Program-made: the position numbers and the translations under genes
Assembly (NCBI GenBank): GCA_026770705.1
Contig: JANJGN010000042.1
Location: 6,076,001-6,140,000 of the forward strand
Direction: 5' to 3'
From: Isurus oxyrinchus
Taxonomy: Eukaryota
DNA: 64,000 nucleotides
In this document: positions 1,363-61,872 of the stretch, in pieces
Numbering within the stretch: position 1 is the first letter of the stretch
How the letters are laid out: each line of letters starts with the position of its first letter
Notes under the pieces: generated by a model
What the model was told of the DNA's origin: nothing
Databases searched by the model: none
What the model saw: only the letters and a program-made list of their open reading frames with translations

Positions 1363-1412
1363 TTTTTTGTTTTTATCTCTGTGTTTAATTGACTGCCACT
1401 GCTCTTCAAGAA

Positions 1413-4156
1413 ATGCTTAACTTGAAGAAGTTCTGTCCGTCTCTGCGACAAGATTTCTGTATCTCTCTTTTGCCTTGCTCACATTCTTTGCTTTCCATTT
1501 CTCTCCTGGTGTTTGACAAGGTGTTTACTAAAAGCCGCTTTCACAGCCATATCTCCTTTCTCAGTGACTGTCTCCATCTCCGACTTACCCCACGTGGATT
1601 TCAACTGAAATTCCACCCCTCATGTTTCGAACCCACCCAGGATTACAGGTATCTCCGGGACATAAAACGTTTCTCGGACTGCTGTTCCCGTCACATTCTG
1701 AGATCCACACTCAGTGCCATGCGCCGCCATATGAACACACTCGACCTCTCCCTCCAGCAGCACCGCCGTACCCTTTTTCAAAGCTGCGCATGCCCCCAGT
1801 TTCATTTTACTGTTCGGCTCATCCGACGCCTCAACAAGAAACTTTTTCTCTTTCTCTCAAGTGCTAAGGAACGCAAGCTCCAACAACTCATCGACACCAA
1901 CACCCATCTAGGACCCTCCACCCCTGCCTGTCCCTCCGACCCCACTCCATCTTCTAATCCCAGCCCCAGCCGTGTATTCACTATACCCCCTGACCTTCCT
2001 CTCTCCGATGCTGAACGGTCAGTGCTCAGCAAAGGACTTAGTTTCATACCCTTACGCCCTCACCTCAATGAATTTCGGGCTTGGCATGATGCTGAACTCT
2101 TCGTCCGCCGTCTTCGTCTCTGGGCTCACATCTTTGGGCAGAGGTCCTCTCCCAGTTCAATGGATCCTTTCACCCACCTCCAATATTGTCCCTCCAACTG
2201 GACCCCTCCCTTTGGATTCTTACGTTCTCTTGATCTTTTCATTGAGAACTGTCGGTGCGACATGAGTCATCCTAATTTCTCTGCTCTTCTCACTCATTCT
2301 CATCTCTCTCTCTCTGAACTGACTGCACTCCGTTCTCTCAGGTCCAACCCTGACATTGTCATCAAACCCGCTGACAAGGGTGGTGCTGTTGTTGTCTGGT
2401 GCACTGACCTCTACCTCGCAGAGGCTGAGCGTCAATTCGCAGATGCTTCCTCCTACCACTCCCTGCACCATGACCCCGCCACTGAACATCAAATCATTGT
2501 TTCCAGGACTGTCACTGACCTCATCTCCTCTGGGAATCTTCCACCCACAGCTTGCAACCTGATAATCGCCCAACCTCGGACGGCCCACTTCTATCTCCTA
2601 CCCAAAATCCACAAACAGAACTGCCCCAGTAGACTGATCATGTCAGCTTGCTCCTGCCCCACAGAACTCATTTCTCGTTATCTTGACTCCCTTCTCTCTC
2701 CCCCTGTCCAGTCCCCTCCCACATACATCCGTGATTCCTCTGACACCTTACGTCACATCAACAATTTCCAGTTCCATGGCTCCAACTGCTTCCTCTTCAC
2801 CATGGACCTCCAATCCGTCTACACCTCCATCCCCCACCAGGATGGTCTGAGGGCCCTTAGCTTCTTCTTTGAACAGAGGCCCAAACAATCCCCATCCACC
2901 ACTACTCTCCTCCGTCTGGCTGAACTTGTTCTCACACTGAACAATTTCTCCTTCAACTCCTCTCACTTTCTCCAAATAAAAGGTGTGGCTATGGGTACCC
3001 GCATGGGCCCCAGCTATGCCTGTCTCTTTATGGGGTATGTGGAACATTCCTTGTTCCAGTCCTACTCCAGCCCCCTTCCACAACTCTTTCTCTGGTACAT
3101 CGATGATTACTTCGGTGCTGCTTCATGCTCTCGTTGAGACTTGGAAAAATTTATTAATTTTGCTTCCAATCTCCATCCCTCCATCATTTTCACGTGGTCC
3201 ATCTCTGACACTTCCCTTCCCTTCCTTGACCTCTCTGTCTCAATCTCTGGTGATAGACTGTCCACCAATATCCATTACAAACCCACCGACTCCCACAGCT
3301 ACCTCGACTATCGCACCTCACACCCCGCTTCCTGTTAGGACTCCATCCAATTATCTCAGTTCCTTCACCTCCGTCGCATCTGTTCTGATGATGCTACCTT
3401 CAAAAACAGTTTCTCTGACAAGTCCTCCTTCTTCCTTAACCAACGTTTTTCACCCATGGTCGTTGACTGGGCCCTCAACCCTGCCCGGCCCATCTCCCAC
3501 ACATCTGCCCTCACGCCTTCTCCTCCCTCCCAGAAACATGATAGGGTCCCCCTTGTCCTCACCTATCACCCCACCAGCCTCCACATTCAAAGGATCATCC
3601 TCTGCCTTTTCCACCAACTCCAGCATGATACCACCACCAAACACATCTTCACTTCACCCCCCTTATCGGCATTCCGCATGTATCATTCCCTCCGGGGCAC
3701 CCTGGTCCACACCTCCATCACCCCCTACTCCTCATCCCCCTCCTATGGCACCACCCCATGCCCACGCAAAAGATGCAACACCTGCCCCTTCACTTCCTCT
3801 CTCCTCACCGTCCAAGGGCCCAAACACTCCTTTCAAGTGAAGCAGCATTTCACTTGCATTTCCCCCAACTTAGTCGACTGCATTCGTTGCTTCCAATGTG
3901 GTCTCCCCTACATTGGAGAAACCAAACGTAAACTGGGCGACCGCTTTTCAGAACACCTGTAGACTGTCAGCAAGAATGACCCAAACCTCCCTGTCGTAAC
4001 ACTCCACCCTGCTCTCTTGCCCACATGTCTGTCCTTGGCTTGCTGTATTGTTCCAGTGAAGCCCAACGCAAACTGGAGGAACAACGCCTCATCTTCCGAC
4101 TAGGTACTTTGCAGCCTTCCAGACTGAATATTGAATTCAACAACTTTAGGTCGTGA
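1413..4156 (+). pseudogene. Disrupted Penelope-like RT-endonuclease ORF
   Basis: ORFs 1389-3137, 3141-3338 and 3456-3962 are in one frame, broken by stops at 3135, 3336 and 3960. A probable small deletion/frameshift lies near 3997. Confidence 0.88.
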
Positions 4157-9025: not shown

Positions 9026-9978
9026 CTAACCTGATCGTAATCCTGTCTTGAAGAAGATGTGGTCTCTCTAAATGTGTCACCTGCTACCTGGTGTCTATGG
9101 CGGTGACAGATCTCATGGTCATGGTCACAGCTGTGATATTAAATTGGATTTCTGGGATCTATTTCCCATCCAGTTTCCTGTCCATCACACCAATATGCAG
9201 CCTCCGCATTGTCCTAATTTACATAGCCATAGACAGTTCTGTCTGGTTAACCGTTGCTTTCACCTTTGATCGATTTATGGCCATTTGTTGCCACAAGCTG
9301 AAAATAAAATATTGTACTGAGGAGATAGCGGCGTGGGTGATTGGAACTGTGTGCACAGTAACCTGCGTAAAAAACACTTTCTTGTATTTTGTATACGAAC
9401 CTATGTACATAATTAACAATGTGCCCTGGTTCTGAATCCTAAAATTAATGTTTTATACGTCATCTGCTTGGGCTGCTTATGATTTAATTCGTTCTATTTT
9501 AATGCCCTGTCTTCCATTCATTCTCATTTTACTGCTCAATGCTCTGACCGTCAGACACATTCTACTGTCCAATAGAGCCCGCAGGAGACTCTGGGCCCAG
9601 AGCAATGGAGAGAATCAGAGTGACCCGGAGACGGAGAAGTGGAGAAAGTCAATGGTTTTGCTTTTCGCCATCTCGGGCAGTTTCATCCTGTTATATTTGT
9701 TATTTTTTGTTACGATCCTCTACGTCCGGATTGCAAAGGTCATTTATTTCTCAGGTTCTGATTTCGATGGATCGACATTTAACCTGGAAGAAACTGGATA
9801 TATGCTTCAGTATTTGAGTTCCAGCATCAACCTGTTCATTTATGCTGGGACCCAGAGTAAATTCAGAGGTGAGTTAAAGAATGGGGTGAAATATCCACTG
9901 AGCCTATTTGTTAAAATGTTTAATTTTTTTAAATGTCGAAAATGCAACATGAATTCTGCATTAAACTCCAACATTTAA
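9026..9978 (+). pseudogene. Exon 2 of GPR139/GPR142-like class A GPCR pseudogene
   Basis: Pyrimidine tract and AG acceptor at 9024-9025. ANLIVILS*RRCGLS..YLVSMAVTD, SVWLTVAFTFDRFMAIC (DRF), LPFILILLLNALTVRHIL and INLFIY (NPxxY variant). One frame with premature TGA at 9049 and 9433. Confidence 0.9.
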
Positions 9979-11794: not shown

Positions 11795-12420
11795 TTTTTA
11801 AAAATTCATTCATGGAATGTGGAATTCGCTGCCTGGGCCAGCATTTATTGCCCATCTATAGTTGCCCTTGAGAAGGTGATGGTGAGCTGCCTTCTTGAAC
11901 CGCTGCAGTCCATGTGGTATAGGTACACCCACAGTGCTTTAAGGGAGGGGGTTCCAGGATTCTGACCCATTGACAGTGAAGGAATAGTGAAATACTCCCA
12001 AGTCAAGACGGTGAGTGGCCTGGAGAGGAATTTACAGGTAGTGGTGTTCCCATCTATCTGCTGCCCTTATCCATCTAGATGGTAGTGGCCGTGAGTTTGG
12101 AAGTACTGTCGAATGAGCCTTGGTGAAGTTCTGCAGTGCATCTTATAGATGGTACACACTGCTGCTACTGTGCTTTGGTGGTGGAGTGATTGAATGTTTG
12201 TGTATGTGGTACCAATCATGCGGTCTGAGTTGTCTTGGATGGTGTCAAGCTTCTTAAGTGTTGTTGGACCTGCACTCAACCAGGCAAGTGGAGAGCATTC
12301 AATCACATTGCCCTGTGCCTCGTAGATGTTTGGCAAGCTTTTTGGGGGGTGGGGTGGAATGGTGGGGGTCGGGGGCGGTCAGAAGGTGAGTTACTCATCT
12401 CACGACTCCTAGGCTCTGAC
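11795..12420 (-). mobile_element. LINE (CR1/L2-clade) 3' end
   Basis: Reverse complement of the tail ggactgcagcggttcaagaaggcagctcacc...gggcaataaatgctggcc. Peptide AGPTTLKKLDTIQD matches the copies at 17218 and 25807. Confidence 0.8.
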
Positions 12421-14294
12421 ATGATATTGTACCCACAATATCTGATATCAGAAACTATCCCAACCAATGAACAGCTCATGTTCTCACACTGAACACGCTG
12501 CACCAAACAAATATATCATTAACTTCCCAGTGCCTAGGTCTGATTACAGTTGTCGACTGAATCCATGGCATCTCACAGGGAATTCACAAAATTCCCCTTC
12601 GGTGGTGTGCCTCAGAATTTGACGATTGTGACAGTTACTAAGAAGGGAATATTTTAAACTGCTTCTTTTACCCAGAACCTGCGAAGAATCAAATCAAATG
12701 TTTAACACCTTGGCAGGAGAGGACATTTATTAGGCTGGGGGGGGGCGGGGGGGGGGGGGGGGTTAAAGTTGTACGTACAGCTGAAAGACAAGGAGAGGGA
12801 GACTGAAATAGCGGCTGCTGCTGTTCAAGTCCGAGGTCAAGTGTGTTATGGGTCAGCCATTATGCAGGATGCTGGTAGAGATTCATTCTGCTTTTCGAGG
12901 TGATGCCATTTGTGGAGATATAAGGAACAAATAGTTCCCGGTGTGGGTCTCACTGCTGGAATTCGATCCTGGGTAACTAAGAACACTGGGAACAAAGGCA
13001 TTGAAAGGACACCAGAAGACATCCCAGTGAAACGTGAGCCTGCTGAAAATATGGGGGCAGTTTGGAATTGAATATTCATGGCTATATACAGGTTGGGAGC
13101 ATGGTAATATTTATTTCGTTGTATTAATCAGTTAATGGCAAAGCAGCTTTGCATTTAGTTACTTGGATTAGTTGGCAATTAAGCAGTGCTTAGTAGATGC
13201 CTACATTAGCTTGCTTGTCACGGTAAGTGGTTTGAAATGTGAAACATTATCACTGGGAAATCCATCTCATCTTTAAAGATATTGGTCTCTATCGGGATCT
13301 TAACATGAATCAGGTGCTGAACACACTTGCTCACATCGCCTCCCACTTCCCCCCGCCCCCTACCCCCGCCCAGACATCACAGGCGACACACTCCTGGGTA
13401 ATTCTCTGCCTCTGACTAATTGTTACCAGAGCTCAACATGTTTTTTCACCTGCTGATGAAGGTCAGTGAACCTGATCCAGGCTAAATTCCCCATTAACAG
13501 CAACAGATTGAAAAGCCAGGCAGAGCAGAAGGGGTCTGCAAAAAACTGCAGGGAAACATTAACACAAAACACAACTCAGACCCACAGATTTGGGAGACTG
13601 GACATTGGGTCTTTCCATGTGTGAGACAACTATTCTCTCACCAAAAGCCCTCCACCCACCTCCCCACCCTCCCCCGCCACCCCCCACCCCCACCACCCAA
13701 GCGAAGTGCACTGTAATAGAACAGTGAACAGTGCACGTTTATTTTATTGAAGGAGCACCACTTTGCAGAAGTCTTCAAATCCACCTAACTGCCTTACCAG
13801 CGCCTTGAACTCTAGCTCTAGAGACCACCTTGAGGGGCTTCATGGACCACAATACGCAGGCTGCGAGTTGAGCAAGGCTGAAAGATTACAGATAGTTTGA
13901 TATATTTCCTTTATATGCTATCATACAAGATGCTTTCACTCGAGCTGCATAATGTTTTATTTACAAAACTGTATACTCCACAATAATTGCTGATGTATGT
14001 ACTGGTGCTGGCATGTAGCGAAACGGTTCCAGAGGTTGTAGTAAAAGGTGTTTGGTGACTTGCCTAAAATGTACTTTTGGTGCTATGCGGCATGTGAGGG
14101 TTTGGAAGAGATAGCGGCAGTGAAAAGGCAGAATCAATGCCCTGCAGGCCGCTTAGTGCTGGGCCAGCACGGCACTAATTTGTTATCAGTTTGTGGGAAA
14201 GAAACAATGGAGTATTTCTCTTATATATTATATACACATAAATATTCCACAATTCACAACCGTAGGGCGCCTAAAAATTGTTTGCACCAATAAC

Positions 14295-18535: not shown

Positions 18536-20390
18536 TTGAAGGTTCTTATGAGCGACCACAATGAGTGGACAGAATGGGAGACAAGCCTTTTCGGAGACGA
18601 GGGGGATAGGGTAAAAATGTAAATGTAAAATAAAACGCTGAGCCCAGCCAGAAATTGCAACTCTGGGAAAGGGACGCCGGCCAGTGAATGCAGAACTGTA
18701 TTCAGTGAGAGACAATAGTTTGATGGAGGAGAGGGAAAGGAGCCAGTGGCTGTAAGTAAAAAAAATTATAAATACTTCGCAAAATCGAAGATGAAGCAAA
18801 AGTCTGAGCATCCACAGACAAAAAAGAGGAAGCAAAACCAGCCCGTCCTCTCCCATTTCGATAATTCAAATGTTCACGAAATTAGCAGTTATAACGTTCT
18901 GTGAAGGCCACGTTACCCTCCACACTGAAGGCTTAACCAAATGCATGAAGCCAACAAGAATATGCAAATTCAGGGAGGGGACGGGAGGAAACGGATAGAG
19001 TGTAGATCTGAATTAAGACAAATTTTGAGTCTGAGGGCCAGGTGATCCCGTGAGGAAGGACATGAACCCAACCAGAATCAACACATTCGTGGAGGAGGGG
19101 CAACGGAACCAATGATTGTAGAAGTCAATGCAGTCAGATTGAGCAACTTCAGAGGAGCCATAGGTCCTCTCCAGACTGAAACGATCTAAAGTTGATTAGT
19201 TGCATTGTTTAAGAATGGCTGTGTTAGAATTGGGAGACAGAATATATGTCGTGCTACCTGGAGTGAAGAAATTAATGTTAAAGATAAAATATTGGTTTAT
19301 ATTTCGGAGCAATGTGATTCGAGACTCGATGGGACGGGTACTAAAAGCTACTGTGGGATAAGAAATGAAAGAATGATCAATATAAAGTAAAAATTCAAAT
19401 GTGGAAATCATACCCTTTAGTATCCATCATGTTATTTAATCCCTTTCTTTGATGTCTTAGGCAGTACCTCTGGATAGATGATAAATTCCTTCTATTGTGT
19501 ATTGACGGGTTCTAAGGTGGCCGGTAACCCCAAGGTGTCTTCACAAAACTGTTCCACATTATGTCCAAATGCAGCAAGACCTGGAAATATCCAGGCTTGG
19601 GCTGACAAGAGGCAAGTAACATTCGTGCCACACAAATGCCAGAAAATGACCATCTGCAACAAGCGAGAATCTAATCATCGCCTTTTGATGTTCAATGGCA
19701 TTACCATCACTGAAAACTCCACTATCAACAACTTGGGGGGCACTCAGGCATTCACCCGTCTTAAATACATTAGTGTTCACAAAGGGGCTGCAGGAGACAG
19801 ATTTGGCAGTTGTTGCTGCTTCTAATCACATCCAAGATTGAGCAGTGTCCATTCCAACGGTTGTGACATGCTTCTGTTGATGTTTAAAACACTGAATAGC
19901 CGGGTTTGATTTTAATAGTTCATACCCTGGAAATATATCAAATAAAGTAAGAGAGAAAGTGCAATTATTTAAGTAGCTCAATTATAACTCGAGTATCTCT
20001 GTAAATCCACTGGGAGTTAACTTTCATGTTTGTAACTGGACATGGTATTGGGGTTACTGTGGCTAATTACCGGCTGAAAAGATGTGCCATCCAGTACTGC
20101 CGGCATCCAGCAGATGGAGGTGTCTCGGCTTTAAATTCTAACATGCGTGTAAGTGCTTGCGAGATCAGGATGAGTCCGTGAAGCTCAGCATGAGAACAAA
20201 CTTGCCCATTTGTAAATCCGAAACTATCTACTCCCCTTGTGTCACTCAGCGTCAAACACTGGACAAACTGACCCCGCACTGACATCACAAACTGCCCCCA
20301 ACCTGGGGCAATGCAGGATCAGACAGTGAACGCTGAGGGCCACACCCTGTAATCATAAACTTCCCACTCCCTGAAGAAGCTCAGGGGAGG

Positions 20391-21546
20391 CACTGAACAC
20401 ACTGCACCTCACAAAGATCCCGCAAACTGCCTCCTCCCTGCGGCAGCACAGTGACCAACACTGAACACACTGCACCTCACAAAGATCCCGCAAACTGCCT
20501 CCTCCCTGTGGCAGCACAGTGACCAACACTGAACACACTGCACCTCACAAAGATCCCGCAAACTGCCTCCTCCCTGCGGCAGCACAGTGACCAACACTGA
20601 ACACACTGCACCTCACAAAGATCCCGCAAACTGCCTCCTCCCTGCGGCAGCACAGTGACCAACACTGAACACACTGCACCTCACAAGGATCCCGCAAACT
20701 GCCTCCCCCCTGTGGCAGCACAGTGACCAACACTGAACACACTGCACCTCACAAAGATCCCGCAAACTGCCTCCTCCCTGTGGCAGCACAGTGATCAACA
20801 CTGAACACACTGCACCTCACAAAGATTCCGCAAACTGCCTCCTCCCTGTGGCAGCACAGTGACCAACACTGAACACACTGCACCTCACAAAGATTCTGCA
20901 AACTGCCTCCTCCCTGCGGCAGCACAGTGACCAAAACTGAACACACTGCACCTCACAAAGATCCCGCAAACTGCCTCCTCCCTGCGGCAGCACAGTGACC
21001 AACACTGAACACACTGCACCTCACAAAAATCCCGCAAACTGCCTCCTCCCTGCGGCAGCACAGTGACCAACACTGAACGCAGTGCACCTCACAAAGTTCC
21101 CGCAAACTGCCTCCTCCCTGTGGCAGCACAGTGACCAACACTGAACACACTGCACCTCACAAAGATCCCGCAAACTGCCTCCTCCCTGCAGCAGCACAGT
21201 GACCAACACTGAACGCAGTGCACCTCACAAAGTTCCCGCAAACTGCCTCCTCCCTGCGGCAGCACAGTGACCAACACTGAACACACTGCACCTCACAAAG
21301 ATCCCGCAAACTGCCTCCTCCCTGCGGCAGCACAGTGATCAACACTGAACACACTGCACCTCACAAAGATCCCGCAAACTGCCTCCTCCCTGTGGCAGCA
21401 CAGTGACCAACACTGAATACACTGCACCTCACAAAGATCCCGCAAACTGCCTCCTCCCTGTGGCAGCACAGTGACCAACACTGAACACACTGCACCTCAC
21501 AAAGATTCTGCAAACTGCCTCCTCCCTGTGGCAGCTCAGGAACTGG
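20391..21546 (+). repeat. 68-bp minisatellite, 17 units plus degenerate flanks
   Basis: Unit cactgaacacactgcacctcacaaagatcccgcaaactgcctcctccctgcggcagcacagtgaccaa repeats with an exact 68-bp period, no indels and few substitutions. Confidence 0.98.
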
Positions 21547-21710
21547 CACTGAACATGTTGCACCTCACGGAGTCATCAGAAAATTACCACAGCCTACGGA
21601 ATGTCATGTTCACAGTGAACCTCACAGACAGATCAACAACTGCCTCACAGCCTGTCCTGTACAAGATGAAACCAAACTGCCCCACTTCGCTCGGCCCTTC
21701 CCCAGACAGT

Positions 21711-21980
21711 AGTGGCGTCGTGGTTTTCTCACTGGTCTAGTAAACCAGAGATCTAGGTTTCAAATCCCACCACAGCAGATAGTAAATTCAATAAAAACCT
21801 TGGAGCAGAAGTCGAAAGATGGCCATGAAATCAGTGGCATTGTCATGAACACCTATTCTATTCACTAATGCCCTTGAGGGAAGGAATTGAGCTGCCCTCA
21901 CTGAACAGAAAAGTAGTTGACTCTTAAAAATGCCCACTTAACATGGACAATTAGCAGCGCCCACATCCCATGAGCAAAAA
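21711..21980 (+). mobile_element. tRNA-derived SINE with LINE-like tail
   Basis: A-box-like tggcgtcgtgg, B-box-like gtttcaaatcc and tail cagcgcccacatcccatgagcaaaaaa. Confidence 0.7.
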
Positions 21981-24514
21981 ATTAATGCCCACCTCAAAGT
22001 GCCCCAAGCCTGTGTGATCCCCGCCTCACCGGTCCTATCTGCCATGTTAACCAAACGGTTTCAGCAGACTGTTCCCTTTCATAGGCTGAACCACACATCA
22101 ATGTTCCCTTCCCCAGATGTATATCGCCACTTCCACAGTCCAATCCACACTGCTGCACCGTCACCAATACTGTACCAAACTGATCCACTGCCCGACCTCA
22201 CAGGTCCCTCTCCCGACAGAGTAAGGCTGCCCCACCACACTAACCCGTGCTCCAGACCGCCCCAACTCACTAGTTCCCTGATTCAGGCAGTGCATACTAC
22301 CCCAACTTTCCCAGCCTCATAACACAAATGACACCGCCTTGGCTCACTAATGTCTCTCGCATACTGAAACACTCAGCCGCACATCAAATGTCCCTGCCCC
22401 GGCTTGAACCACCAGGAAGATCTCTGTCCCAGGCAGCAGCTAAGACTCTCTACCTCAGCAGCCCCTGCCCTTGACTGGAGCAGATTTTTTTCACATCACC
22501 AGCCCAGACTAGACCGCACTGTATCACCTCACCAGTCCCTGTCCCAGGATATCACAAACACTCCATCACATTGGTCACTCTGTTTGACTGAACTCGACTT
22601 CCTCAAATCACCAGTTGCTGTCCTAGTGTGAACAACATGGCCAAATCTCACGGGCACCTGCAGCAGATTTGAGCAACTTACCGGTCGATGGGCCAGGAAG
22701 TAACATCCACTGCCCAGCTGCCCAGAACGTAAAGGCAGTACTGATGTGCTGGAAAGACGACATTTAGCCTCCATCCCCGGTAACCCAGCAAAAAGCGGTG
22801 CCGAGGGAAGCGGGATACAATGCTGTGAACCCATTCAATAGGACCTAAATTCAGTTGGATACATTTTACTGGAGACCCATAGGGGAGAAACTGAGTAGGG
22901 AACATCCTTTCAGATCACTGCAGACAATTGACCAACTGACTGATACTAGTCACAGATGTTTTCCTTTTAAATATTTTACCAGTGCAGAACTACACTTTTC
23001 CAGAATAATTTACTTGACCTTTTCAAATGTGTGTCATATATTTTGTCTTAGCTGTATCCGAATTTTTCTTCCCCGATATTAATAAGATGTACAACACGGA
23101 TTCTGTTACAATTTAATAGCGTCCTCATTTTCAAGCGTTAACTGAGTTCACTGCTAGTTAGCTTCTGTAATGAGGTTGTTGCATTGCTGTGACAGTGCAT
23201 TGTGAAGGTGCAAATCCGTCACTTTTCAGTTATAATGTTTCTCCAAATACTATGATCCTTTGCCCAAACACTATTTTTCAGCCGGTTCTCTCTTTTTTTC
23301 AGAACGTTGGCTCCACCAAATTGTAAGCCCTGCATGGTTGCTACCGTGAAATGCATTCTTCTCTATTACAGTGTAACTGAGTGTTTAATTGAAGCTTGCC
23401 ATTCCCAATCCATCGGCACATGCCTCCCTCACCTGCCTGTAATATTGAGTAACCTTTGCATGCGTCATTCATGGCTCTAATTGTAATGTCAGTCAGATTC
23501 AGCAGCGGCTCCAACCCTCACCCCAGTATCGCAGTCCCGCTTACTTCCGTTCCTTATGCCTGTTATGGACAGAATGGAAATGTTGTCTTTCTTGGGAAGA
23601 TCTAATTATTTCCTGAAGATACCTTTCCCTTATAAGGGTTGTAACTTATAACTGGTAAAACTTCAGCGCCTGATTGAACACACACCCCTTTCTGACATTG
23701 GGCTTTTCATCGAAACAGTCACCTGGGAGCAGCACAAGCAGAGTGCTGTAGTGCCGCTTGTCTTTGTGATAATTTGTTAAACAGAGGACTAATGCAATGT
23801 GGATCTACAATTCTCCATGGTGGAAGGTTGGAGGTTAATCTTCCCCACCTAATAGAACAAAACAGATTATTCCATAGTAATTCTACACCATTGACTCAAG
23901 AGAGATAGTAAATACGCTTGAAGAGGTTCCTTGAAAACATGTGCATGTGGCAAATTCAGTGATACTGGCATCAGTTCGCCCTGAGAACAAAACACTTAGA
24001 ATATTATCGACAGTGTTTACATCATCTGCAATAACTTCATCCTGATCGTACATTTAATTCTTTCTTCCTGACAGCACCACCGACATTGCTGCCCAGAGTC
24101 TGAAGATCACAGAGAACTCTACACTTTTCTGGAATATACTGCCGTTCAGTATGATTTCATTCGAGGTGCACAATAGTTTACGGTGAAATGTGAACCTGAC
24201 GAATGCATAACACGGTTAATTAGAGGCAGTGGTGTTGCTGGAGAGTTATACGATTCCAATTGTTGGAGAGAAAGGCGTTCAGTGATGAGTCGAAAGCAGA
24301 TTCGCAATAATTGGTGGGAAGTGGGGTATGAGGGGTTGGAACAGAGTGCGGCAGTGATACCGCAAGATGTATGCCCCACGGGCCACATTGTCTTGGGCTG
24401 ATGGCATATTTATATGTTCCGGGGGGCTGGGAAACAAAAAGAAAACAGAAATATATGCTTGCATTGGCATATCGCTTTGCATGGCCACCGGACCCCTCAA
24501 AGCTCTCTGCAGGC

Positions 24515-25300: not shown

Positions 25301-25479
25301 TGAAGCTATGGAAAAGAGTGTGGCAGCTCCTGGCCCTGCTCAGCATCTTGCAAGGCACTGAGGATTGGGCATGTATGTCTCTGCCAAAACAGCACTAACA
25401 GCCCGAATACTACTTACCTCGAACTCACAACTATTGAAACACATGAAATATAAACGGGCGATTTAGCATCCGTGTCGAA

Positions 25480-26367
25480 ATGCTGCAAGCCCTGGAAAAT
25501 ATCCGGGCTTGGGCTGATAAATGGCCCATTGTAATTGTGCCACACAAGTGTCTGATAATGTTCATCTACAACAAGAGAGAACCTAACCATCGTTATGTGG
25601 CATTTATTGGCATTGCCATCGCTGAATTCCCCACTATCAACATTCTGGGGGTTACCATTGACCAGCAACTGAACTGGAGCAGCCATATTAATACACGGGT
25701 GGAACGGAGGCTAGGAACCCTGCGTGAATAACTCGCCTTCCTGACTCCGAAAGCCCTTACACCACCTACAAGACACAGGCCAGGAGAGTAATGGAATGTT
25801 CCCCCCTTGCCTGGAAGAGTTCAGCTTCGACAAAAGAGGCTTGACTCCATGCAGAACGAAGCAGCCCACTTCATTGGCGAACGATCCAAAAACATCCACT
25901 CCCTCCAGCAACGACGCACAATAGAGGCAGGGTGTGCTACCCAGAAGATGCACTGCAGGAACTCACCAAAGCTTCTTCAACAGTACATTCCAAAGCCATT
26001 ACCATTACCATCATGAAGGGCAAGGGCAGCAGACACATGGGAACACAATCACCTGGGACTTCCCCGCCAAGTCACTCATCATTCTGACTTGGAAATATAT
26101 CGCCGTTCCTTCACAGTCAATGGGTTAAAATATTGGAACTGCACCCCACACCACCCCCCAACACCCCACCGCCTCTAACACCCCCCACACCCCCACCCCC
26201 TCCCCGCCGGACCACTTCATCCCTAACAGCACGGTGGTGTTACATGCACCATATGGACTGCACCGGTTCAAGAAAACAGCTCACCAAAACCTTCTCAACG
26301 GCAATTGCTGATGGGCCATAAATGCTGCCCTACAGAGCGATACCCACATCTTATGAATGAAAAAAAT
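25480..26367 (+). mobile_element. LINE (CR1/L2-clade) RT C-terminus and 3' tail
   Basis: LENIRAWADKW...INILGVTIDQQLNWSSHIN, and tail cccacatcttatgaatgaaaaaaa. Confidence 0.85.
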
Positions 26368-32110: not shown

Positions 32111-33006
32111 ACAATGTGTTAATCTGCTGCTACAGCCTTTGATGTGGAACGTTATGGAAAGCTTGTTTTGAAACCAAGTGTGCTTCATGACCAGGCCGTC
32201 CAACATTCATTTTTTTGTGCTATTTATTCACAAAATGTGTTTAGTTCAGAAGGTCTGCTATGACGGAGATATCTATTACTAATAACAGTAAAGTGGTGCA
32301 AAACAGAGTCGCATTTTGCGTTACCATGATCTTGAAAACGGTCATGAAAAGAGATTTTCATTTTTCAATCCCGAGATGTTTCTTCGTTTCAAGGATTCAC
32401 TCAGTATAGCATCTGCGGTGGGTAACTACATCTATTCTTGCACTGAGAGCGATTGTATGTGCAATGGTCCTCCTTAGTTATTTATTGTTTTGGGTATCTA
32501 CAGCCACTATAGAGAGCCCCATGGAAATGACAAGTTCATCATGATTGATTTAAGAGGATATGTCGTGACTTGCATAAATTTTGGTGCAGTTCATTTTGTT
32601 CTTAGGTTTTGATGAGGAGAAAGAAAGTGTTGGAAATTTTCAAAATAACACGCTTGCCAGCAATGTTAATGCCATTGTATAAAAGGCAGAGTGGCATGCT
32701 GGATCCGAAGATGGATGAGTGACAGATAACAAAGAGCAGTGATGAATTATGATTTTTTTTCTAACTGGAGGAAGGCATAAAGTAGGGTTCTCCAGCAGCA
32801 GGTACTAGGATAACTGTTTTCCTTGTTATATATTTAGGGCTTGGACTAGGGTTTGCAAGGAAACAATTTCAACATTGACGCATTGTTGAAATCGTGGATG
32901 TATTGCAAACTTGTTGGATGGATAGCCATCGATTTGAAGAGGACATGGGCACACTGGTGGAATAGGTGGACAAGTGATAGATGTAACTTTAGACAACGTT
33001 GGAGTG

Positions 33007-33501: not shown

Positions 33502-34849
33502 AATGAAGTGATAAATTTTGGCAGGAAGAACGAGGCAAGGCAATGAATAAATAAGGGCACTTTCCTCAGGGGAATGGAGGCGCAGAGTGACCTGCAGGGT
33601 ATATTTGCAGAAACCAATTGATGCAACAGAACAAGTTGAAAACATGGTTAAAAAGTTATAGCTAATCGGGGGCTTCATAATTAGAAGCATATGATGCAAA
33701 AGCAAGCAGGTTGTCATACAAATGCTTGACATTAAATGGAATATTATGATCAGTTCTGGTGTCTACACATTTGGAAGGATCTGAAGGCATTAATTAGGGT
33801 ACAGGAGCGAATTTCAAAAACGGTTCCAGGGAAGAGGTGTTTTCGTTGCACGGGTGGTTTAGAAAAACTGTGGCTGTTCAACTTGGAGAAGAGAAGGGCC
33901 AGAGCAGATTTTATAGAAGTAATAAAAATTATGATGTGCCTGGACAGAAAACAAAGCGAGAAACTGTTCCATTGGCGGAAGAATCAAGAACGAGGGGAAA
34001 CTTATTTAAGGTGAAAAATGTCACACAAGGGAAGGGAATAAAAGTAATGTTGCTTTCACTCAGCAAGCGGATAGGCTCTGGAATGCCCTGGAGGGAGAAT
34101 CAGTCATGGCTTCAAAAGGGAATTGCATAATTATCTGAGAGAGAAACAATGCAGGGCGGAGAATTGGGTCTAGATGAGTGGCTGCTGCAGAGAACGGGCA
34201 CGGACATAGCGATCAGAATAGCTTCTTTCTGCGCTGTTCCCAGTCTCTGATTGTATGGTTGAAATTCATTCCTCTGTCGAATTCCCAGATGACCCGATTA
34301 TGAAATGAGTGCTGAAAGCCTGGCATGTGGATCACTGTTTAATATTCAGGGATTGTGCGACTAACTTTCCCAGACTTTATATTCCAAAGTTTCTTCCCAC
34401 AGAAACTTAATTATCTGCGGATTTGGCAAGAATACCGAACGTCTGATCCTTTGGAATGACTTCAGTTGTTAAAATGATTGGAATGGATTTCGGAAGAGCG
34501 TGATGGGTATATTAACATAGGTGCAAGTTGTTGATATTTTGGAGCAGTTTCAGTGATTGATGGACACACTGAAATCTTTACATGTGGGATCAAACGGCAC
34601 CTTCCCCCTCCACATCTATCCAACAATCCCTTGATTCCATAGTGTAAGATTTATATCTTTCCCAAAATTCATATCCTCAGCTTTTATTTATTCGTTCATG
34701 GAGTTTTGTTGTTGCTGGCTAGGACATTATTAATTACTCATCCATAATTGCCCTTGACAAAGTGGTGGTGTGCCGCCTTCCTGAACTGTTACAGTCCCTG
34801 TGGTATAGGTGCACCCACGGTGCTGTTAGGAAAAGCTTTCTACCCAAAT

Positions 34850-37425
34850 GAAGCCATATGTGTAGAATTTAAAAACAAAACACGAGCACATTTTGGGAAT
34901 GTACTATAGGCCCCCAATCAGTCAGAGAGAATTGGAAGAGAAGATATGTAGGAAAATATCATATAAGTGTAAAAATAATAGAGTATTAATGGTGGGGGGT
35001 TTCAATGCCCCCAACATTGTTTGGATTAATCATAGTGTTATACGTTTAGAGGGAACAGAATTTCTTAAAATGCATCCAGAAGTGCTTTTTTAAGCCTGTA
35101 CGTGGAAGGTCCAACACAACATGGGACGGTCCTGTAGCCGGGAAAGTGGTAGAGGTATCAATGGGGGAACATTTTGCATATAGTGATCAAAGCTCCATTA
35201 GATTCAAGATTGTTATGGTAAAGGACAAGGATGAGCCAGAAATCGGAGTTCTAAATTGGGGGAAGGCCGATTTTAATGAGTGCAGATATGATTTGGCCAG
35301 ATTGGACTGGGAGCAGCGACTTTAAAGTAAATCTGCCTCAGAACAGTGGGGCCCATTCAAGAAGGAAATGTAAAGAGTACAGGGCCAACATATTCCATTA
35401 AAGACAAAGGGTGAGACGAACAAATTCCGGGGACCCTGGATGTCGAGGGGTAGACAAGATTGGATAAAGAGAAAAGTGGAGGCTTACGAGAGATACTGAA
35501 GGCTCAAAACACCGGAATCCCTAGAGGAGTATAGAATGTGTAGGAGGAAGTTAAAAAGGAAATTAGGAGAGAAAAAAGGGGGCATCAAAAAACAGGTAAA
35601 ATATAGGGAAATGCAAAGTTATTTTACATGCATCTTAGGAGCAAGAGGATAAGTAGGGAAAGAGTAGGCTCCATTAAGGACCACGGTGGTAATTTGTGGG
35701 TGGAGCTGAAAGACGTAGGTATGTTCAAAATGAATACTTTGTGTCAGTGTTCACTGGTGAAAGGGACAACGTGGGTAAGGAAATCAGACAGAAGTACTGT
35801 AATATAATTAAGTAAATTAGCATAGAAAGAATGGAGTTCCTAAGTGGCCTGGCAGGCACAAAAGTAGATAAACTTCCAAGTCTGAATGAAATATGTCGCA
35901 GGCTGTTGACTGAGACATGGGAGGAGATTGCAGGGCCGCTGGCAATAACTTTCAGTACCTCTCTTTCCATCGCAGAGTTGCCAGAGGACAGGCAGCAGCC
36001 AACGTGGTGTCATTTTTCAAGAAGGGAGGAAAGAATAAACCAGGGAACTGCAGACCAGTCAGCCTCACCTCAGTGGTGGGGAAGCTATTGGAAGTAATTC
36101 TGAGAGACAAAATTAATCTACACTTGGAGAGGAAGTGTTTAGTCAAGGACAGTCAGCATGGCTTTGTTAGGAGGAGATCATGTCTGACCAATTTGATTGA
36201 ATTTTTCGAAACAGTGACTACTCATGTAGATGAGGACAATGCATTTGTGGTAGCCTACTTGGACTTCAGCAAGGCGTTTGGTAAGGCCCCGCATGGAAGA
36301 CTGATACCAAAGGTAAGAGCTCATGGGATCCAAGGCAATTTGGAAAATTGGATCCAGAATTGGCTGTGTGGAGGAAGCAGAGTGTGATGGCCGAGGTTTG
36401 CTTTTGTGACTGGATGTCTGTGTCCAGTGAGTTTCCACAGAGATCAGTGTTGCATCCTTCGCTATAAATGATTTAGACTTGAACATAGGAGGGTTGATTA
36501 GTAAATTCATAAATGACATTAAAATTGGTGGCATGGTAAATTGTGAGGGGGATAGCCTTAGATTACACGAGTTCATAGACGGTTGGTCAGATGGGCTGAT
36601 CAGTGGTAAATGGAATTTTATTCAGATAATTGTGAGATGATGAACTGGGGCAAGACAAAAAATGTACGGGAATACGTATTAAATGATAGGACCCTGGGAA
36701 ATATTGAGGGTCAGAGGTATCTCGGTGTACATGTCCACCGGTCCCTTAAGGTAGCAGGGCAGGTAGATAAGGTGGTTAAGAAGGTTTATAGGATACTTGC
36801 CTTTATTAGCCGAGGCATTGAGTATAAGTCAGGCATTTTATGCTGGAACTGAATAAAGCGCTAATTAGGCCCCAGCTAGAGTATTGTGTACAGTTCTGAA
36901 ATCCATATTATAGGAAGGATGAGATTGCACTAGAGAGAGTGCAGAAGAGATTTACCAGATGTTGCCTGGGCTGGGGAGTTTTAGTTAAGAGGAGAGATTG
37001 GATAGACTGGGGTTACTTTCCTTAGCACCGAGGAGATTGAGGGGGGATAGGATTGAGGTGTATAAAATTATGAGGAGTATAGATAGGGTAGACAGGAATG
37101 AACCTTTCTCCTCGGTGGAGAGATCAATAACTAGTGGCAATAGATTTAATGTAAGGGGCAGGACATTAAGGGGCGATGTGTGGAAGAATTCTTTAACCCC
37201 GAGGGTTGTGAAAATCTGCAACCCACTGCCTGAAAGGGTGGTAGATGCAGAACACCTCATAACATTTAAGAAGCATTTGGATATGCACTTGCGATGCCAT
37301 GGCATACAAGGCTATGGGTCTAGTGCTGGAAAATGGGATTAGAATTGTAAGGTACTTGTTTGACCGGCGCAGACTCGAAGGGCCGAAGGGCCTTTTTTAT
37401 GGTGTAGGCCTCCATGATCCTGTGA
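34850..37425 (+). mobile_element. CR1 LINE ORF2 (endonuclease part to 3' tail), frameshifted
   Basis: YYRPP..VGGFNAP; GNCRPVSLTSVVGKLLE..SQHGFVRRRSCLTNL..YLDFSKAF; LGLLSLAPRRLRGD. Confidence 0.92.
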
Positions 37426-46200: not shown

Positions 46201-46689
46201 TCACTGAATTACGGGGTGAACAAACATGCCCAGAGAACAGAATCATGTGCTAGCGTTTTACCCATTTCCAACAACAATGATTATATTGATATCCCTGTTG
46301 GCCTTGCTGTGATGCATTTTAATTGATCTGCACTCTTTTCCTTAATCTTTCCATAATTCTCCAGTACTGTCCTATCAAAGGCTTTCTTAAGCTTCGCGTG
46401 CGTAACTGTACATGACCAAAAGTCGAAATATCACAGCAAAAAAAAAGGAAAACAAGGAAGGTTTCTTGCATGAACACAGCTCAAACCAAGAATGCGGTCT
46501 TTGTTTATCACTGGTAGGTCAATAGATTTGTCACATTAAAGGCATGACTGTTTCATTAGACGTTATTTCAGTGAGAGCTGTTTATTTCATTCGGTGCACA
46601 AAGCTGACATTTAAACATGGATATCATTATCAATCTAACACTAATGCATCGCCAATTGTTAAACATGTACGTTTACAATATGCAAGATG

Positions 46690-47030
46690 AACTACAGTGA
46701 TTCACCAAGTCTCCATCGAAAGCACCTTCCAAACATTCCACATCTACCATTTTGAAGACAACAATATACACCAAACGCATGATAACACTACGACCGGCAG
46801 GTTTCTCTCCAAGCCCCACAACATCCTGACTTGAAACTATATCGCCATGCATTCACTGTGGCTGAATCAATGTCCTGTAAATTTGTTGCTAACAGCAGTG
46901 TGTGTGTACCTGCATAAGATGGACTGCTGAGATTCAAGGAGCCACCTTCACAAGCACAAATAGTGATTGTTCACCAATGATGGCCTTGCCAGCGAAGCCC
47001 ACACCCCATGAAAGTACAATTAAAACAAAC
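46690..47030 (+). mobile_element. LINE 3' tail directly upstream of the IgNAR promoter
   Basis: agcaccttccaaac..atcctgacttgaaactatatcgcc..ggactgctgagattcaag..gccagcgaagcccacaccccatgaa. Same family as 25950-26365. Confidence 0.7.
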
Positions 47031-47230: not shown

Positions 47231-47270
47231 CCGCCCTATGCAAATCCGCCCATCCTCTTGATGTTTATAA
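47231..47270 (+). promoter_or_regulatory. IgNAR V promoter: GC box - octamer - GC box - TATA
   Basis: ccgccc (47231-47236), ATGCAAAT (47238-47245), ccgccc (47246-47251) and tttataa (47264-47270), about 100 bp before the leader ATG. Confidence 0.8.
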
Positions 47271-47363
47271 GGTCGGTGTTCTGCTACACACCGTTACACA
47301 GAACAGTTGATGTTGAGGTCTAGAGTTCGTTCTGCTTATGTTTTCCACACTGGTGAAGAAACA

Positions 47364-47406
47364 ATGAATATTTTCTGCCTTTCGCTCCTTTTAACCTGGT
47401 TACCAA
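47364..47406 (+). CDS. IgNAR: IgNAR leader exon (signal peptide)
   Basis: MNIFCLSLLLTWLP closely resembles known IgNAR leaders (MNIFLLSVLLALLP). Phase-1 donor gtaagt at 47407. Confidence 0.95.
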
Positions 47407-47548: not shown

Positions 47549-47820
47549 GTACCTTCAGTGTTAGAGTGGACCAAACACCAAGAACGGCAACGAAAGAGAC
47601 AGGCGAAACTCTGACAATCAACTGCGTCCTAAAGGATACTAGCTGTAGCTTGTACTCTACATCATGGTTCCGGAAAAACCCGGGATCAACAGATTGGGAA
47701 GGGATAACCATTGGCGGCCGATATGTTGAATCAGTCAACAAGGGAAGCAACTCATTTTCCCTGCGAATCAATGACCTGACAGTTGAAGACAGTGTCACGT
47801 TTTACTGCAGAGCTGAAACT
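47549..47820 (+). CDS. IgNAR: IgNAR V exon (germline VNAR, type II-like)
   Basis: Acceptor cag ends at 47548. (S)[90 protein letters not shown] has the canonical Cys/Trp/Cys, no CDR2, and an extra CDR1 Cys. Confidence 0.97.
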
Positions 47821-47858
47821 CACAGTAATGAGTTTGAGCTTCTGCTCATACAAGAACA
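47821..47858 (+). other. V 3' recombination signal (22-bp spacer)
   Basis: CACAGTA - 22 nt - ACAAGAACA. Confidence 0.92.
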
Positions 47859-48048
47859 CCCTCGGATCTTCTGGTGATTAAAATAGGAACTGTTTCGTTT
47901 TTTCGCTCAAACGTTGCAGTCACAGATTCCCATCTGAGACCGGCGGAGTTGTGTAAATAACTGGTGATATTTTCAAGATCAGAAATCTCCGCAGTGAGAA
48001 TGCGGATTTGAAGTGCGGTTGTTCAATGTACAGCCCCGCATGTGAACG

Positions 48049-48131
48049 TATTTGTGCACTGGGCTGTACCACTGTGTACATACTATAGCTGCCACAGCAA
48101 TCGAGAAGACGGTTCCTGTAATACACAAACT
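48049..48131 (+). other. IgNAR: IgNAR D1 (48077-48092, tacatactatagctgc) with 12/23 RSS
   Basis: TATTTGTGC-12-CACTGTG [D1] CACAGCA-23-ACACAAACT. Confidence 0.92.
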
Positions 48132-48319
48132 ACCAGCAGAGATTATGTTTTAAAAGTGAGAACAGAGTCATCATATCTCAACGGGTTTAGCAGCAAGTTT
48201 TCGGTTTCTCAGTGATTTGGATGGGTTTAGTTATAAAAGGCTTAAAAGAACAATGTTGTGTTGTGTATACAGATAGTGTATACATCAAAACTGAGAGCGT
48301 TGCATTACTGCACGTGCGA

Positions 48320-48397
48320 CCTTTTTGCACTGATCCCTATGACTGTGTGACTGGTGTGCCACAGTGATGAATCCTGGATTCGCATAATACACAAACT
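48320..48397 (+). other. IgNAR: IgNAR D2 (48348-48359, tgactggtgtgc) with 12/22 RSS
   Basis: CCTTTTTGC-12-GACTGTG [D2] CACAGTG-22-ACACAAACT. Confidence 0.92.
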
Positions 48398-48712
48398 TCC
48401 CCACACCTCTTAAGGCAAAGCGAACAGATATCACTTTCTGAATGGCTAAGATATCTCATGACTAAATATTTATTATCTTCGTCAGACAGTGCCTGGTATT
48501 TTAAAGGCTTTTTTCTAGCTATTTAGGTGGTTATTTTATAAATTTTATAAATGTCATCTTCATAATGGAACACTTTACATTCGCCAGGATTTTTCTAGTG
48601 GGTGAGAATTATAGACATCTAAGGGATCCTAACATAAAGGCAACGATTTACCACATTTTTCAATCAATTTTTTGAACACCTGAAGGATTTATTGTAAAGT
48701 TTTGGAGAATGG

Positions 48713-48780
48713 ATTTATTGTGTTGGAATGAATTGATGTGTAACTGCTATGACACAGTGACTCGGGCCACAGCACAAACC
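48713..48780 (+). other. IgNAR: IgNAR D3 (48741-48752, taactgctatga) with 12/12 RSS
   Basis: ATTTATTGT-12-TGATGTG [D3] CACAGTG-12-GCACAAACC. Confidence 0.88.
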
Positions 48781-49095
48781 TCCCCGACAGTTATTTACTT
48801 TACTGCTCGTGAATATGGCTGAATAATCTACTTTCTTACACTTGATCTCTTGCTGCACAGAGGTTGAAATCAATTCCTGATCGACTTTTGTTTGGAATCT
48901 ATCCGCATTCCCAGTAAAATTGAAACACTGGATTGTCTTTTTCAATGTTACAAAAAGCCCCATTGCTCATACGAACTATCGGCACGGACAGAAACGGACA
49001 GAAAATAAAGTTTTATTAAGGAATAAAAAATATGCAACATGTCCTTGGATCCGTCTTGCTTTGGAATATTTATTGCCAAACTCTTCTTCGTTGAT

Positions 49096-49134
49096 ACTTT
49101 TTGAACTGGGCTGACTGGGAGCTGACTGACTGTG
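49096..49134 (-). other. J 5' recombination signal (23-bp spacer)
   Basis: ACTTTTTGA-23-GACTGTG as read on the + strand. Confidence 0.9.
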
Positions 49135-49182
49135 ACTATAACAACTACGATGGGGCTGGCACGGTGCTGACTGTGAACTCTG
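49135..49182 (+). CDS. IgNAR: IgNAR J segment
   Basis: YNNYDGAGTVLTVNS contains the VNAR FR4 motif. Phase-1 donor gtaagt at 49183. Confidence 0.95.
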
Positions 49183-50632: not shown

Positions 50633-52149
50633 ATTAACACTGAGAAGGTAGGGGTGAGATGCAGACTGGACTAGGAGCATTGCTGAGGTTGAAGGGAATC
50701 GCTGCATAGATGGAACAGTCATTAATAGAAAAGTGCAATATTCTATGAAAGCTGAAAAATAAAACACGTGGCGATAAACTGGTATCGCTTCCATTACCTG
50801 GAGTCATACAGGTTGTTCCACCCATAGAATTCCTTCTCTCTGCAACTGATGCTCCCCAATTTAAGCTACGTTAAAACTGTTAACTTTCCCTTGAGCTGTT
50901 ACAGGACCGATAAAGCAGGCATTCATTTATTGACATAAAAATGTTTTAAACCCTTTATCAAATAGTGTAAAGAGGAAGATTAAATGCTAATTGCGGTTCC
51001 CTGAAGTCGGAAAAGGAGGTTTTGTGGCTTAATATCATTCCTTGCCTTTACTGACAAATCAACGGGTAAAACGTTGGTTGCAACATATACTTCAATAATA
51101 TTCACATTCTCAACATCAGAGGGAAATAATTTTATATAGTTTTTTTTCCAACTTGGCAAATGATTGTTAATTTAAGACTTCCATTGGCCATAATTATGCA
51201 GCTGATTAAATTGTTCACTTCCTCATCCCCATTTCCGCACTCCATCTTTTATTTTTGCAGACACGTATCAATTTTTACTCAGTTTTGTACACTTTCATCA
51301 ACTGTAATTTGTGATACATTTTATTTTTCTCCGAATTTTCCATTTTTTTAGGCTGCCTATATAATCTCCTATAAAAATCCTTCCCAACTTTGCCCATGTT
51401 ATCTTCCCGACATATCTGAAGAATGATTGTTTGCAATTTTCACTCGAACACATTCAAGTCCATAAATAATGGTAATTGCCTTCACCTTTATGACTCCAGA
51501 AGATGACTTATCATTATTTGCTCCACCCTTATCCTGTGTATTCCTTTACCACTGCTCAAATAATTAAACTGCATTGCTAACACTCCATATCTCTGGCACA
51601 GGTTCAGTCCAAAGATATTTGGAAGTTTCTCGATAAATCATCTGCTCTTTGTCTGTTATCGATATTTTAGGCTATGTGCCATCAATTACCTCTTGCAGTT
51701 TCTTATTTTTTTTTCCAATTTCAACTTAACGTTCTCACATTTGAACTCCTCCACACCATGCCCTTCTAACATTCAATCTTTATGAAAGTATTTTATTTTC
51801 AGTCGAGGCAAACCCCGTGTTTATCCTTGCGTTTTTTTTATTTTTTTCATCTTCCCGAAGTAAATCTCATTCTTCGTCCATTTTCAAATCGTATCTTCCC
51901 ATTTGTCTTGTGCCACTGTGTAACTAGTTTCTTATTCTTACTGGTTAGCCAAGGAACGTTTTGTGGCAACGAATGACACGACAGTAATGTACTGTTCTCA
52001 TATCGCAGTGAGAGAGCCCAAAAGATCCAATATAGAGAGAGGACTCTAGGAATAAAAACCACCCTTTATTTAATGCTAATTCCTGTAAACTACTAATATT
52101 AAGGCAGAACTGCATGAAAACTCCTCCCAGAAAATGAGAAATAATACAT

Positions 52150-58255: not shown

Positions 58256-58449
58256 CTGAAAATCAGGAACCAAAACTACAGACAGTGCTCCAGGTGCGGC
58301 CTCAACAAGGCCCTCCACATTTGTAAAAATACTTCCTGTTTTTACACTTTAACCCCCTAGCAATACAGACCAAAATCCATTTGCCTTATTAATCACCTGT
58401 TGCACCTGTTTGATAACTTTGTTTTTGTGCTTCATGTGCAATGTTGTTC

Positions 58450-61557: not shown

Positions 61558-61872
61558 GGCCGACTCCTCCAATAATAAGTCTCTTCTACCTCGAAAATTC
61601 CGAACTGAGAGCAAAGGGTTTTGTGCAGCTGCTTTGCCTCATCAGGGAGTACAAGCCAGAAAGCATTGGGGTGACCTGGCAAAAGAACGGAAATAGCATA
61701 GACTCTGGCTTTACCACTACGCCCCCAGCTAAATCATCGAAAGGAGACTTCAGCTCCACGAGCTTCCTGAATGTGCCTCTTCAGGAATGGAGCAGCGGTT
61801 CCGTGTACAGATGCCAAGTGACCCATTCCGCAACCAACAGTAACAAGCAGAAAGAAATTCGATCAACGTCAG
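61558..61872 (+). CDS. IgNAR: IgNAR constant domain C1 exon
   Basis: Acceptor ttttag ends at 61557; donor gtgagg at 61873; 315 nt, phase 1-1. GPTPPIISLFY..FVQLLCLI..VTWQKN..VPLQEWSSGSVYRCQVTHSATNSNKQKEIRSTS matches IgNAR C1 as I recall it from nurse shark. Confidence 0.95.

Follow-up and report, generated by a model that had tools for sequence, protein, structure and literature searches.

Does a tandem repeat that holds recombination signals near an immunoglobulin gene act on that gene, or are its signals an accident that repeat turnover has multiplied? The question is raised by the window (the whole stretch of 64,000 nt of Isurus oxyrinchus DNA that was analyzed), where a 68-bp minisatellite carrying sixteen RSS-like words lies upstream of an IgNAR cluster, an arrangement for which a preliminary description had suggested cluster inactivation, a RAG decoy or germline instability.

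A 68-bp minisatellite with sixteen RSS-like signals

The array and its first and last signals are located as follows.

20391..21546 (+), 68-bp minisatellite of 17 units, with a homogeneous tract at 20391-21535
20447..20485 (+), first candidate cryptic 23-RSS (heptamer and 23-nt spacer, with the nonamer falling in the following unit), recurring every 68 bp
21467..21505 (+), sixteenth and last candidate cryptic 23-RSS

Tandem Repeats Finder (TRF) reported a period of 68 with 17.3 copies, 95% matches and 0% indels over 20391-21568, the only long multi-copy array among its eight rows. Units 1-16 comprise 13 distinct sequences, with a mean pairwise divergence of 3.8%, and several features by which minisatellites are recognized are present: head-to-tail units, interspersed variant units and degenerate flanking units. 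Certain variants are common to non-adjacent units (11 and 13; 8 and 17; 6 and 14), which is a pattern of internal exchange. There is no CpG enrichment at the array (observed/expected 0.33).

The heptamer CACAGTG recurs at 20447 + 68n for n = 0 to 15, the last at 21467, so that 16 of the 16 full units carry it, just as had been described; unit 17 reads CTCAGGA at this site. The nonamer at spacer 23 is TCACAAAGA in 12 of the 16 signals, TCACAAAGT in two, TCACAAAAA in one and TCACAAGGA in one. The agreement with the consensus nonamer previously given as 5/9 holds for 15 of 16 units, the remaining unit having 4/9; likewise C2 and A5-A7 are kept in 15 of 16, with G at position 7 in one. The signals have the same plus-strand orientation as the V RSS at 47821, with 26.35 kb between the last array heptamer and that RSS, bearing out the earlier placement of the array some 26 kb upstream and in V orientation. 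With the RAG nick position at 12/23 signals as reference, the homogeneous tract ends (at 21535) no more than 1 nt from the predicted nick of a seventeenth heptamer, and its left edge lies 12 nt from the nick position.

The IgNAR cluster and its own RSSs

The window contains one IgNAR cluster with leader, V, three D, J and C1.

47238..47272 (+), octamer and TATA-like box, the putative promoter, upstream of the IgNAR leader
47364..47406 (+), IgNAR leader exon, giving an open frame once spliced to V
47549..47820 (+), IgNAR V exon, intact, matching VNAR structures (best E 6e-39)
47821..47858 (+), V 3' RSS, CACAGTA-22-ACAAGAACA
48049..48131, D1 (48077-48092) with 5' 12-RSS on the minus strand, CACAGTG-12-GCACAAATA, and 3' 23-RSS, CACAGCA-23-ACACAAACT
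48320..48397, D2 (48348-48359) with 5' 12-RSS on the minus strand, CACAGTC-12-GCAAAAAGG, and 3' 22-RSS, CACAGTG-22-ACACAAACT
48713..48780, D3 (48741-48752) with a weak 5' 12-RSS on the minus strand, assigned by position, CACATCA-12-ACAATAAAT, and 3' 12-RSS, CACAGTG-12-GCACAAACC
49096..49182, J 5' 23-RSS on the minus strand, CACAGTC-23-TCAAAAAGT, and J segment (49135-49182)
61558..61872 (+), IgNAR C1 exon, matching novel antigen receptor chain 4q97 (E 5e-38)

The order V-D-D-D-J with 12 and 22/23 RSSs, followed by C1, is the expected layout, and V-D-D-D-J-C1 agrees with that in PMC8692893. The longer spacers in the cluster (47821-49134) are mixed, at 22 nt (V, D2 3') and 23 nt (D1 3', J). The D3 5' RSS is unusually weak, scoring 6.7 when left out of the matrix described below. 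We also observed that Cys is encodable in one frame of all three D segments and that the V exon encodes an additional Cys after the first canonical one.

Against these signals the resemblance of the array nonamers to those of the locus, remarked on previously, proved real, but the closest one had been overlooked: the nonamer of the J RSS, CACAGTC-23-TCAAAAAGT, from which the array nonamers differ by only 1-2 bases.

Quality of the array signal as an RSS

We built a scoring matrix from the cluster's eight RSSs and took the background from the window without the array region and the V-J region. The common array unit scored 20.1, and under leave-one-out matrices it scored above the omitted real RSS in seven of eight rounds. 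None of the 5,725 background site-spacer pairs reached its score (best 15.0). The strong-RSS filter of PMC11153149 (CAC and at most four mismatches) was passed by 15 of the 16 array signals, seven of the eight real RSSs and 10 of 5,727 background pairs, the last representing nine distinct positions in the window. The best background RSS-like site of the 22 type is at 35736-35773 (-), with the score of 15.0, and the best of the 12 type at 32212-32239 (-), with 13.8; the latter is between array and promoter and convergent with the array.

We also estimated the nonamer term of the RIC score by summing the single-position differences of Table S2 of PMC12711392 on the published standard spacer. On that spacer, and assuming additivity of positions 4 and 8, the array gives -34.7 and J -33.2; additivity held in 3 of 3 checks, every one involving position 9. 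The RIC23 threshold is -60, and spacers alone shifted RIC by up to 22 units (Table I of PMC2193808); the full RIC23 of the array unit, spacer included, is likely above the threshold, judging from its sequence. The top-1,000 list of predicted 23-RSS nonamers (Table S2 of PMC12711392) contains none of the four array nonamer variants, and position 4 of the array nonamer differs from the purine of the motif in that paper; the cluster's V and J nonamers are likewise outside the list, and the nonamer shared by D1 3' and D2 3' is inside. The array spacer matches those of the cluster at 5-10 of 22-23 positions when left-aligned.

Whether judged by the matrix, by mismatches or by the estimated nonamer term of RIC, heptamer and nonamer of the array thus equal those of the J RSS in quality, and 5/9, as the earlier measure of the match, understates a signal that is RSS-grade by all three. 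The array unit, with its CAC heptamer and nonamer at 23, has the sequence features of a cryptic 23-RSS.

Rarity of such a match

How often a random repeat unit would look this good was calculated per random 68-bp unit, the 16 copies counting as one event. By mismatch count (CAC and at most four mismatches), the 10 background pairs correspond to ~1.1% per 68 bp, or 0.6% when only spacers 12 and 23 are allowed (5 of 3,818 pairs). The locus-trained matrix gave 4.5e-5 to 1.4e-4 per unit, from just two and six hits in 6 Mb of Markov sequence. Shuffling the unit 300,000 times with an approximate sampler produced heptamer plus nonamer core in 8 mononucleotide, 63 dinucleotide and 917 trinucleotide shuffles (rates of 2e-4 for dinucleotide and 3e-3 for trinucleotide). 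The RSS match in one random unit therefore exceeds chance, by an amount that depends on the score used, and such a match at one locus is not trivially expected. The excess of heptamers across the window (29, with 10 expected) is no independent evidence, because it is mostly the array itself. Coincidence had been called quite possible; an accidental origin is the best supported, but a match of this quality is less common than casual coincidence would make it, near 1e-4 per unit by matrix.

An older repeat family around the array

Degenerate units of a 67-68-bp family flank the array and recur at 12.4 kb.

20189..20390 (+), three older degenerate units (31/65, 44/66 and 38/67 identical to unit 1), without CAC at the heptamer site
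21547..21680 (+), two older degenerate units (37/64 and 34/61 identical)
12420..12625 (+), second degenerate cluster, of three units (nhmmer E 2.6e-5, 6e-4 and 1.2, from a model built without them), without CAC at the heptamer site

The non-amplified units (array flanks and 12.4 kb) have 48-67% identity to unit 1, and none of nine has CAC at the aligned heptamer site; the two units that adjoin the array read CTCAGG there, and one mis-registered row reads TACAGTT. Since the older units lack CAC at that site, the heptamer would be recent and would have arrived with the amplified variant. The array is likely a recent expansion inside this older degenerate repeat, the older units being, on the order that the alignment suggests, ancestral. 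Extending the model with the 12.4-kb units revealed no further family copies below E 0.2 in the window.

Heptamer-like words (at least 6/7) are enriched in the family, with six in 610 bp and 1.2 expected (P = 0.0016), a set in which one word sits in the homogenized part of unit 17 and another is a separate perfect heptamer at 21611-21617 (+). The latter belongs to an older unit and to another register, has the orientation of the array signals and has a weak nonamer (5/9) at spacer 12. We considered whether the family consensus predisposes to an RSS; this was unsupported at the register of the array, where the family column frequencies give exact heptamer plus core a joint probability of 4e-6 (from 8-9 units, one row being mis-registered).

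Other features and rejected readings

A coding role for the array was rejected, as the unit length is no multiple of 3 and the ORFs inside the array encode 41-67 aa; a 107-aa ORF across the array end had no homologue among proteins of 58-188 aa and no Pfam match. Among 40 short ORFs near both clusters of the repeat family, none matched Pfam below E 0.1 (two came at 0.15 and 0.24), lending nothing to the idea of a transposon host for the family. No Rfam match for a structured RNA was found in the window, and no match that would indicate plasmid or vector origin. An Ig switch region consists of AGCT-rich repeats in the J-C intron; the array lies upstream of V and has no AGCT in units 1-16, and this reading too was dropped. 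WGCW density is 32 per kb in the array and 20 elsewhere. Derivation of the array from one of the cluster's RSSs was discarded, the spacers being unrelated.

Elsewhere in the window, 1389-3962 (+) holds a 582-aa reverse-transcriptase ORF (RVT_1) followed by more open frames, a long and partly broken retroelement that we take to be Penelope-like. A Rhodopsin-family 7TM receptor sequence at 9052-9978 (+), with Pfam 7tm_1 on both halves and an in-frame stop at 9433-9435, is probably a pseudogene. Downstream of the array, a C-rich, G-poor stretch at 21940-22640 (+) has no clear period and no family match, and the insert between the two, near 21700-21940, is presumably SINE-like. Self-BLAST showed dispersed repeat families with multiple copies (11796-12330, 25473-26361, 34682-34830 and 46671-47025; 35939-37392, 56772-59651 and 62560-63567), one of them with RVT_1 remnants, and dispersed repeats occupy much of the interval from array to V.

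Geometry and possible partners

Under RAG a 12-RSS pairs with a 23-RSS. The array signals are of the spacer class that pairs with the D 5' RSSs, and their orientation relative to the D 5' 12-RSSs is the deletional one; the claim that a joint from array to D 5' 12-RSS would remove promoter, leader and V is thus correct in its geometry. D1 has the V RSS at a distance of 255 bp and the array at one of 26.6-27.6 kb, so that the V RSS is 100-fold closer.

Once V, the three D and J have been joined, no strong minus-strand 12-RSS is left: the best score is 0.4 among nine sites in leader and V and 7.7 among 257 sites beyond J. Two lone heptamers in the J-C1 intron are convergent with the array.

51914..51920 (-), lone perfect heptamer in the J-C1 intron, without a nonamer (1-2/9 at spacer 12)
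58234-58240 (-), second lone heptamer in the J-C1 intron, nonamer 1-2/9 at spacer 12

Their number is at chance level (two observed, 0.9 expected). With no convincing 12-RSS partner after VDDDJ joining, the array has no obvious means of editing a gene already assembled, the capacity that makes RS/KDE useful (PMC2605238). Weak partners are possible, since even a genuine RSS may have a low score, as that of D3 5' does (6.7). Within the unit, a 12-RSS for intra-array 12/23 joining was looked for and rejected (best score 3.2 among eight CAC sites).

In mouse, RAG scanning yields very low-level joins to convergent cryptic sites (PMC11153149). For nurse shark IgM, partial rearrangements stayed within the minilocus in all but possibly one of 97 clones (PMC2435157). 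Such shark PCR data would be blind to array-to-D joints, because the primers were in the leader or leader intron (PMC2435157).

Origin of the array and its possible roles

The reading that we find best supported, and hold with reasonable though not full confidence, is that of an accidental, likely RAG-competent array of cryptic 23-RSSs that arose by ordinary minisatellite expansion and would cause rare deletions at most. By accident, a consensus heptamer would have arisen in one unit, 23 nt ahead of a nonamer-like word, and minisatellite turnover (presumably by unequal exchange, slippage or conversion) would then have copied this one cryptic 23-RSS sixteen times. Judging from the competence that its sequence suggests, RAG should cut the array in vitro; in B cells we would expect low use, with at most rare accidental deletions. 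A joint from array to D, removing promoter, leader and V, would be possible while a D 5' RSS remains, before V-D joining; because it loses V and could occur only at that stage, such a joint would count as an off-target dead end and no regulated switch. Selection has left no sign, in that the share of variable columns is alike inside and outside the RSS (3 of 16 and 10 of 52, Fisher P = 1.0, a test of low power with 13 variable columns); no heptamer column varies (0 of 7, P = 0.21). Cryptic RSSs above the RIC threshold have a frequency of ~5e-4 per bp (PMC2193808), which we count for the accidental reading, together with the gamma-satellite cRSs that recombined (PMC2193808), the strong orphan RSSs of mouse Igk (PMC11153149) and the confinement of shark IgM rearrangement to the minilocus (PMC2435157). 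Against it are the RSS-grade rarity of the match, its suitable spacer and orientation, the standing of the array as the sole long one and the low joint probability from the family column frequencies, and it leaves to chance that the right tract edge falls within 1 nt of a nick.

Could the signals be even less than this, that is, look-alikes that spacer, nonamer or chromatin make non-functional even as cryptic sites? The absence of all four nonamers from the top-1,000 list and the lack of the motif purine at position 4 (PMC12711392) point that way, as does the failure of one of three gamma-satellite cRSs with passing RIC to recombine (PMC2193808), but the V and J nonamers of the cluster are missing from the same list, and the additive RIC estimate on a standard spacer puts the array close to J; we regard inertness as unlikely. 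At the other end of the sequence of events, RAG might have nicked the newly formed cryptic RSS in the germline and so have triggered or driven the expansion, a role that would be causal and not adaptive. RAG-like activity in shark germ cells has been argued from germline-joined genes (PMC2193156), the sole expanded unit among 10 aligned family units is the one with an intact RSS, and the tract ends next to the predicted nick site. This is nonetheless one event at one locus, and the germline events were called infrequent (PMC2193156); with two edges, and a few positions out of 68 that would count, chance puts an edge this close to a chosen site in several percent of cases, the tract's left edge lies 12 nt off, and the old neighbors differ from the array at the heptamer block, so that homogenization would stop there anyway. 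We consider germline nicking quite unlikely as the cause.

Two further readings give the array a role in the cluster itself. In one, a mirror image of the kappa-deleting element, a selected bank of non-coding 23-RSSs would be joined to a D 5' 12-RSS or a J-C1 intron heptamer, so that promoter and V or VDJ are lost and the cluster is silenced for exclusion or editing. The RSS-grade match, right spacer class and convergent orientation are what such an element would have, and RS/KDE, non-coding and 25 kb from C-kappa (a similar distance), joins a non-canonical intron signal (PMC2605238), to which the two convergent perfect heptamers of the J-C1 intron could be compared. These heptamers, though, lack a nonamer and are at chance level in number, the array heptamer is missing from nine of nine older units, conservation of RSS columns is not in excess (at low power), and heavy-chain exclusion in sharks has been attributed to limited cluster activation (PMC2435157). 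We judge this explanation very unlikely. In the other, the 16 signals would act as a decoy or loading platform, binding RAG unjoined and tuning the cluster's rearrangement rate. Sixteen near-canonical sites within 1.1 kb would suit this, and a "safe site" role has been proposed for gamma-satellite cRSs (PMC2193808), but RAG recruitment also requires H3K4me3 chromatin (PMC12711392), the array is ~26 kb from the promoter in sequence without CpG enrichment, and it shows no conservation signal; we give this the least credence of all. The suggestions of a programmed inactivating, decoy or instability role thus found no positive support, the RSS columns being not extra conserved and the heptamer present in none of nine older units, and for inactivation the distances to D1 and the want of a good 12-RSS after VDDDJ joining tell against it as well.

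Comparison with known systems

From the cluster's own V, D and J signals the array differs in having no gene segment, in its unrelated spacer and in lying inside a repeat family; by the latter two features it cannot be regarded as a copy of a V, D or J signal. Orphan strong RSSs of mouse Igk (PMC11153149) resemble the array signals, 15 of 16 of which pass the same filter, in standing without a coding segment; the Igk orphans are real RAG junction peaks, whereas the array is known from its sequence.

In RS/KDE (PMC2605238), too, a non-coding RSS stands ~25 kb from an Ig gene and inactivates the locus when used, and the array shares with it the property of a non-coding RSS in cis in deletional orientation. 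RS/KDE, however, is located downstream, removes C-kappa, still has its partner after V-J joining and is backed by knockout evidence (PMC2605238), whereas the array is upstream, is multiplied, is missing from the older units and has no convincing surviving partner. We do not class it as a KDE-type element, because the signal showed no conservation within the array (a test of low power) or in the older units, and the candidates for a surviving partner are the weak 12-RSS-like sites and lone heptamers described above. That each B cell makes one heavy chain despite many clusters is a long-standing puzzle in sharks (PMC2435157); if a deleting element were true after all, it would be a new answer to shark heavy-chain exclusion, with cluster silencing tunable by copy number.

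A close parallel is the mouse gamma-satellite (Cowell et al. 2003, PMC2193808), in which two of three 23-cRSs recombined and RAG-induced breaks were detected in cells, and for which "genomic remodeling" and "safe site" roles were proposed. In both, the unit of a tandem repeat includes an RSS-like signal with a 23-nt spacer, and amplification of the repeat has multiplied that signal. The gamma-satellite has a 234-bp unit, makes up ~6% of the genome and was studied by plasmid assay and LM-PCR (PMC2193808), whereas the array has a 68-bp unit in 16 copies at one locus, with a consensus heptamer and beside an Ig cluster. By analogy, the array would work at most like the gamma-satellite cRSs.

The proposal of an undescribed mechanism is therefore not borne out, as both cryptic 23-RSSs in a tandem repeat (PMC2193808) and inactivation by a non-coding RSS (RS/KDE, PMC2605238) have been described, while among titles and abstract openings of the open-licence literature we found no report of a repeat with RSSs in the vicinity of Ig genes in sharks. 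On present evidence the array is, by its sequence features, a further case of cryptic RSS in a tandem repeat, joining the gamma-satellite in that respect; and if accidental, it still provides sixteen natural copies of a cryptic RSS whose distance from a recombining cluster is known, useful to gauge the reach of shark RAG.
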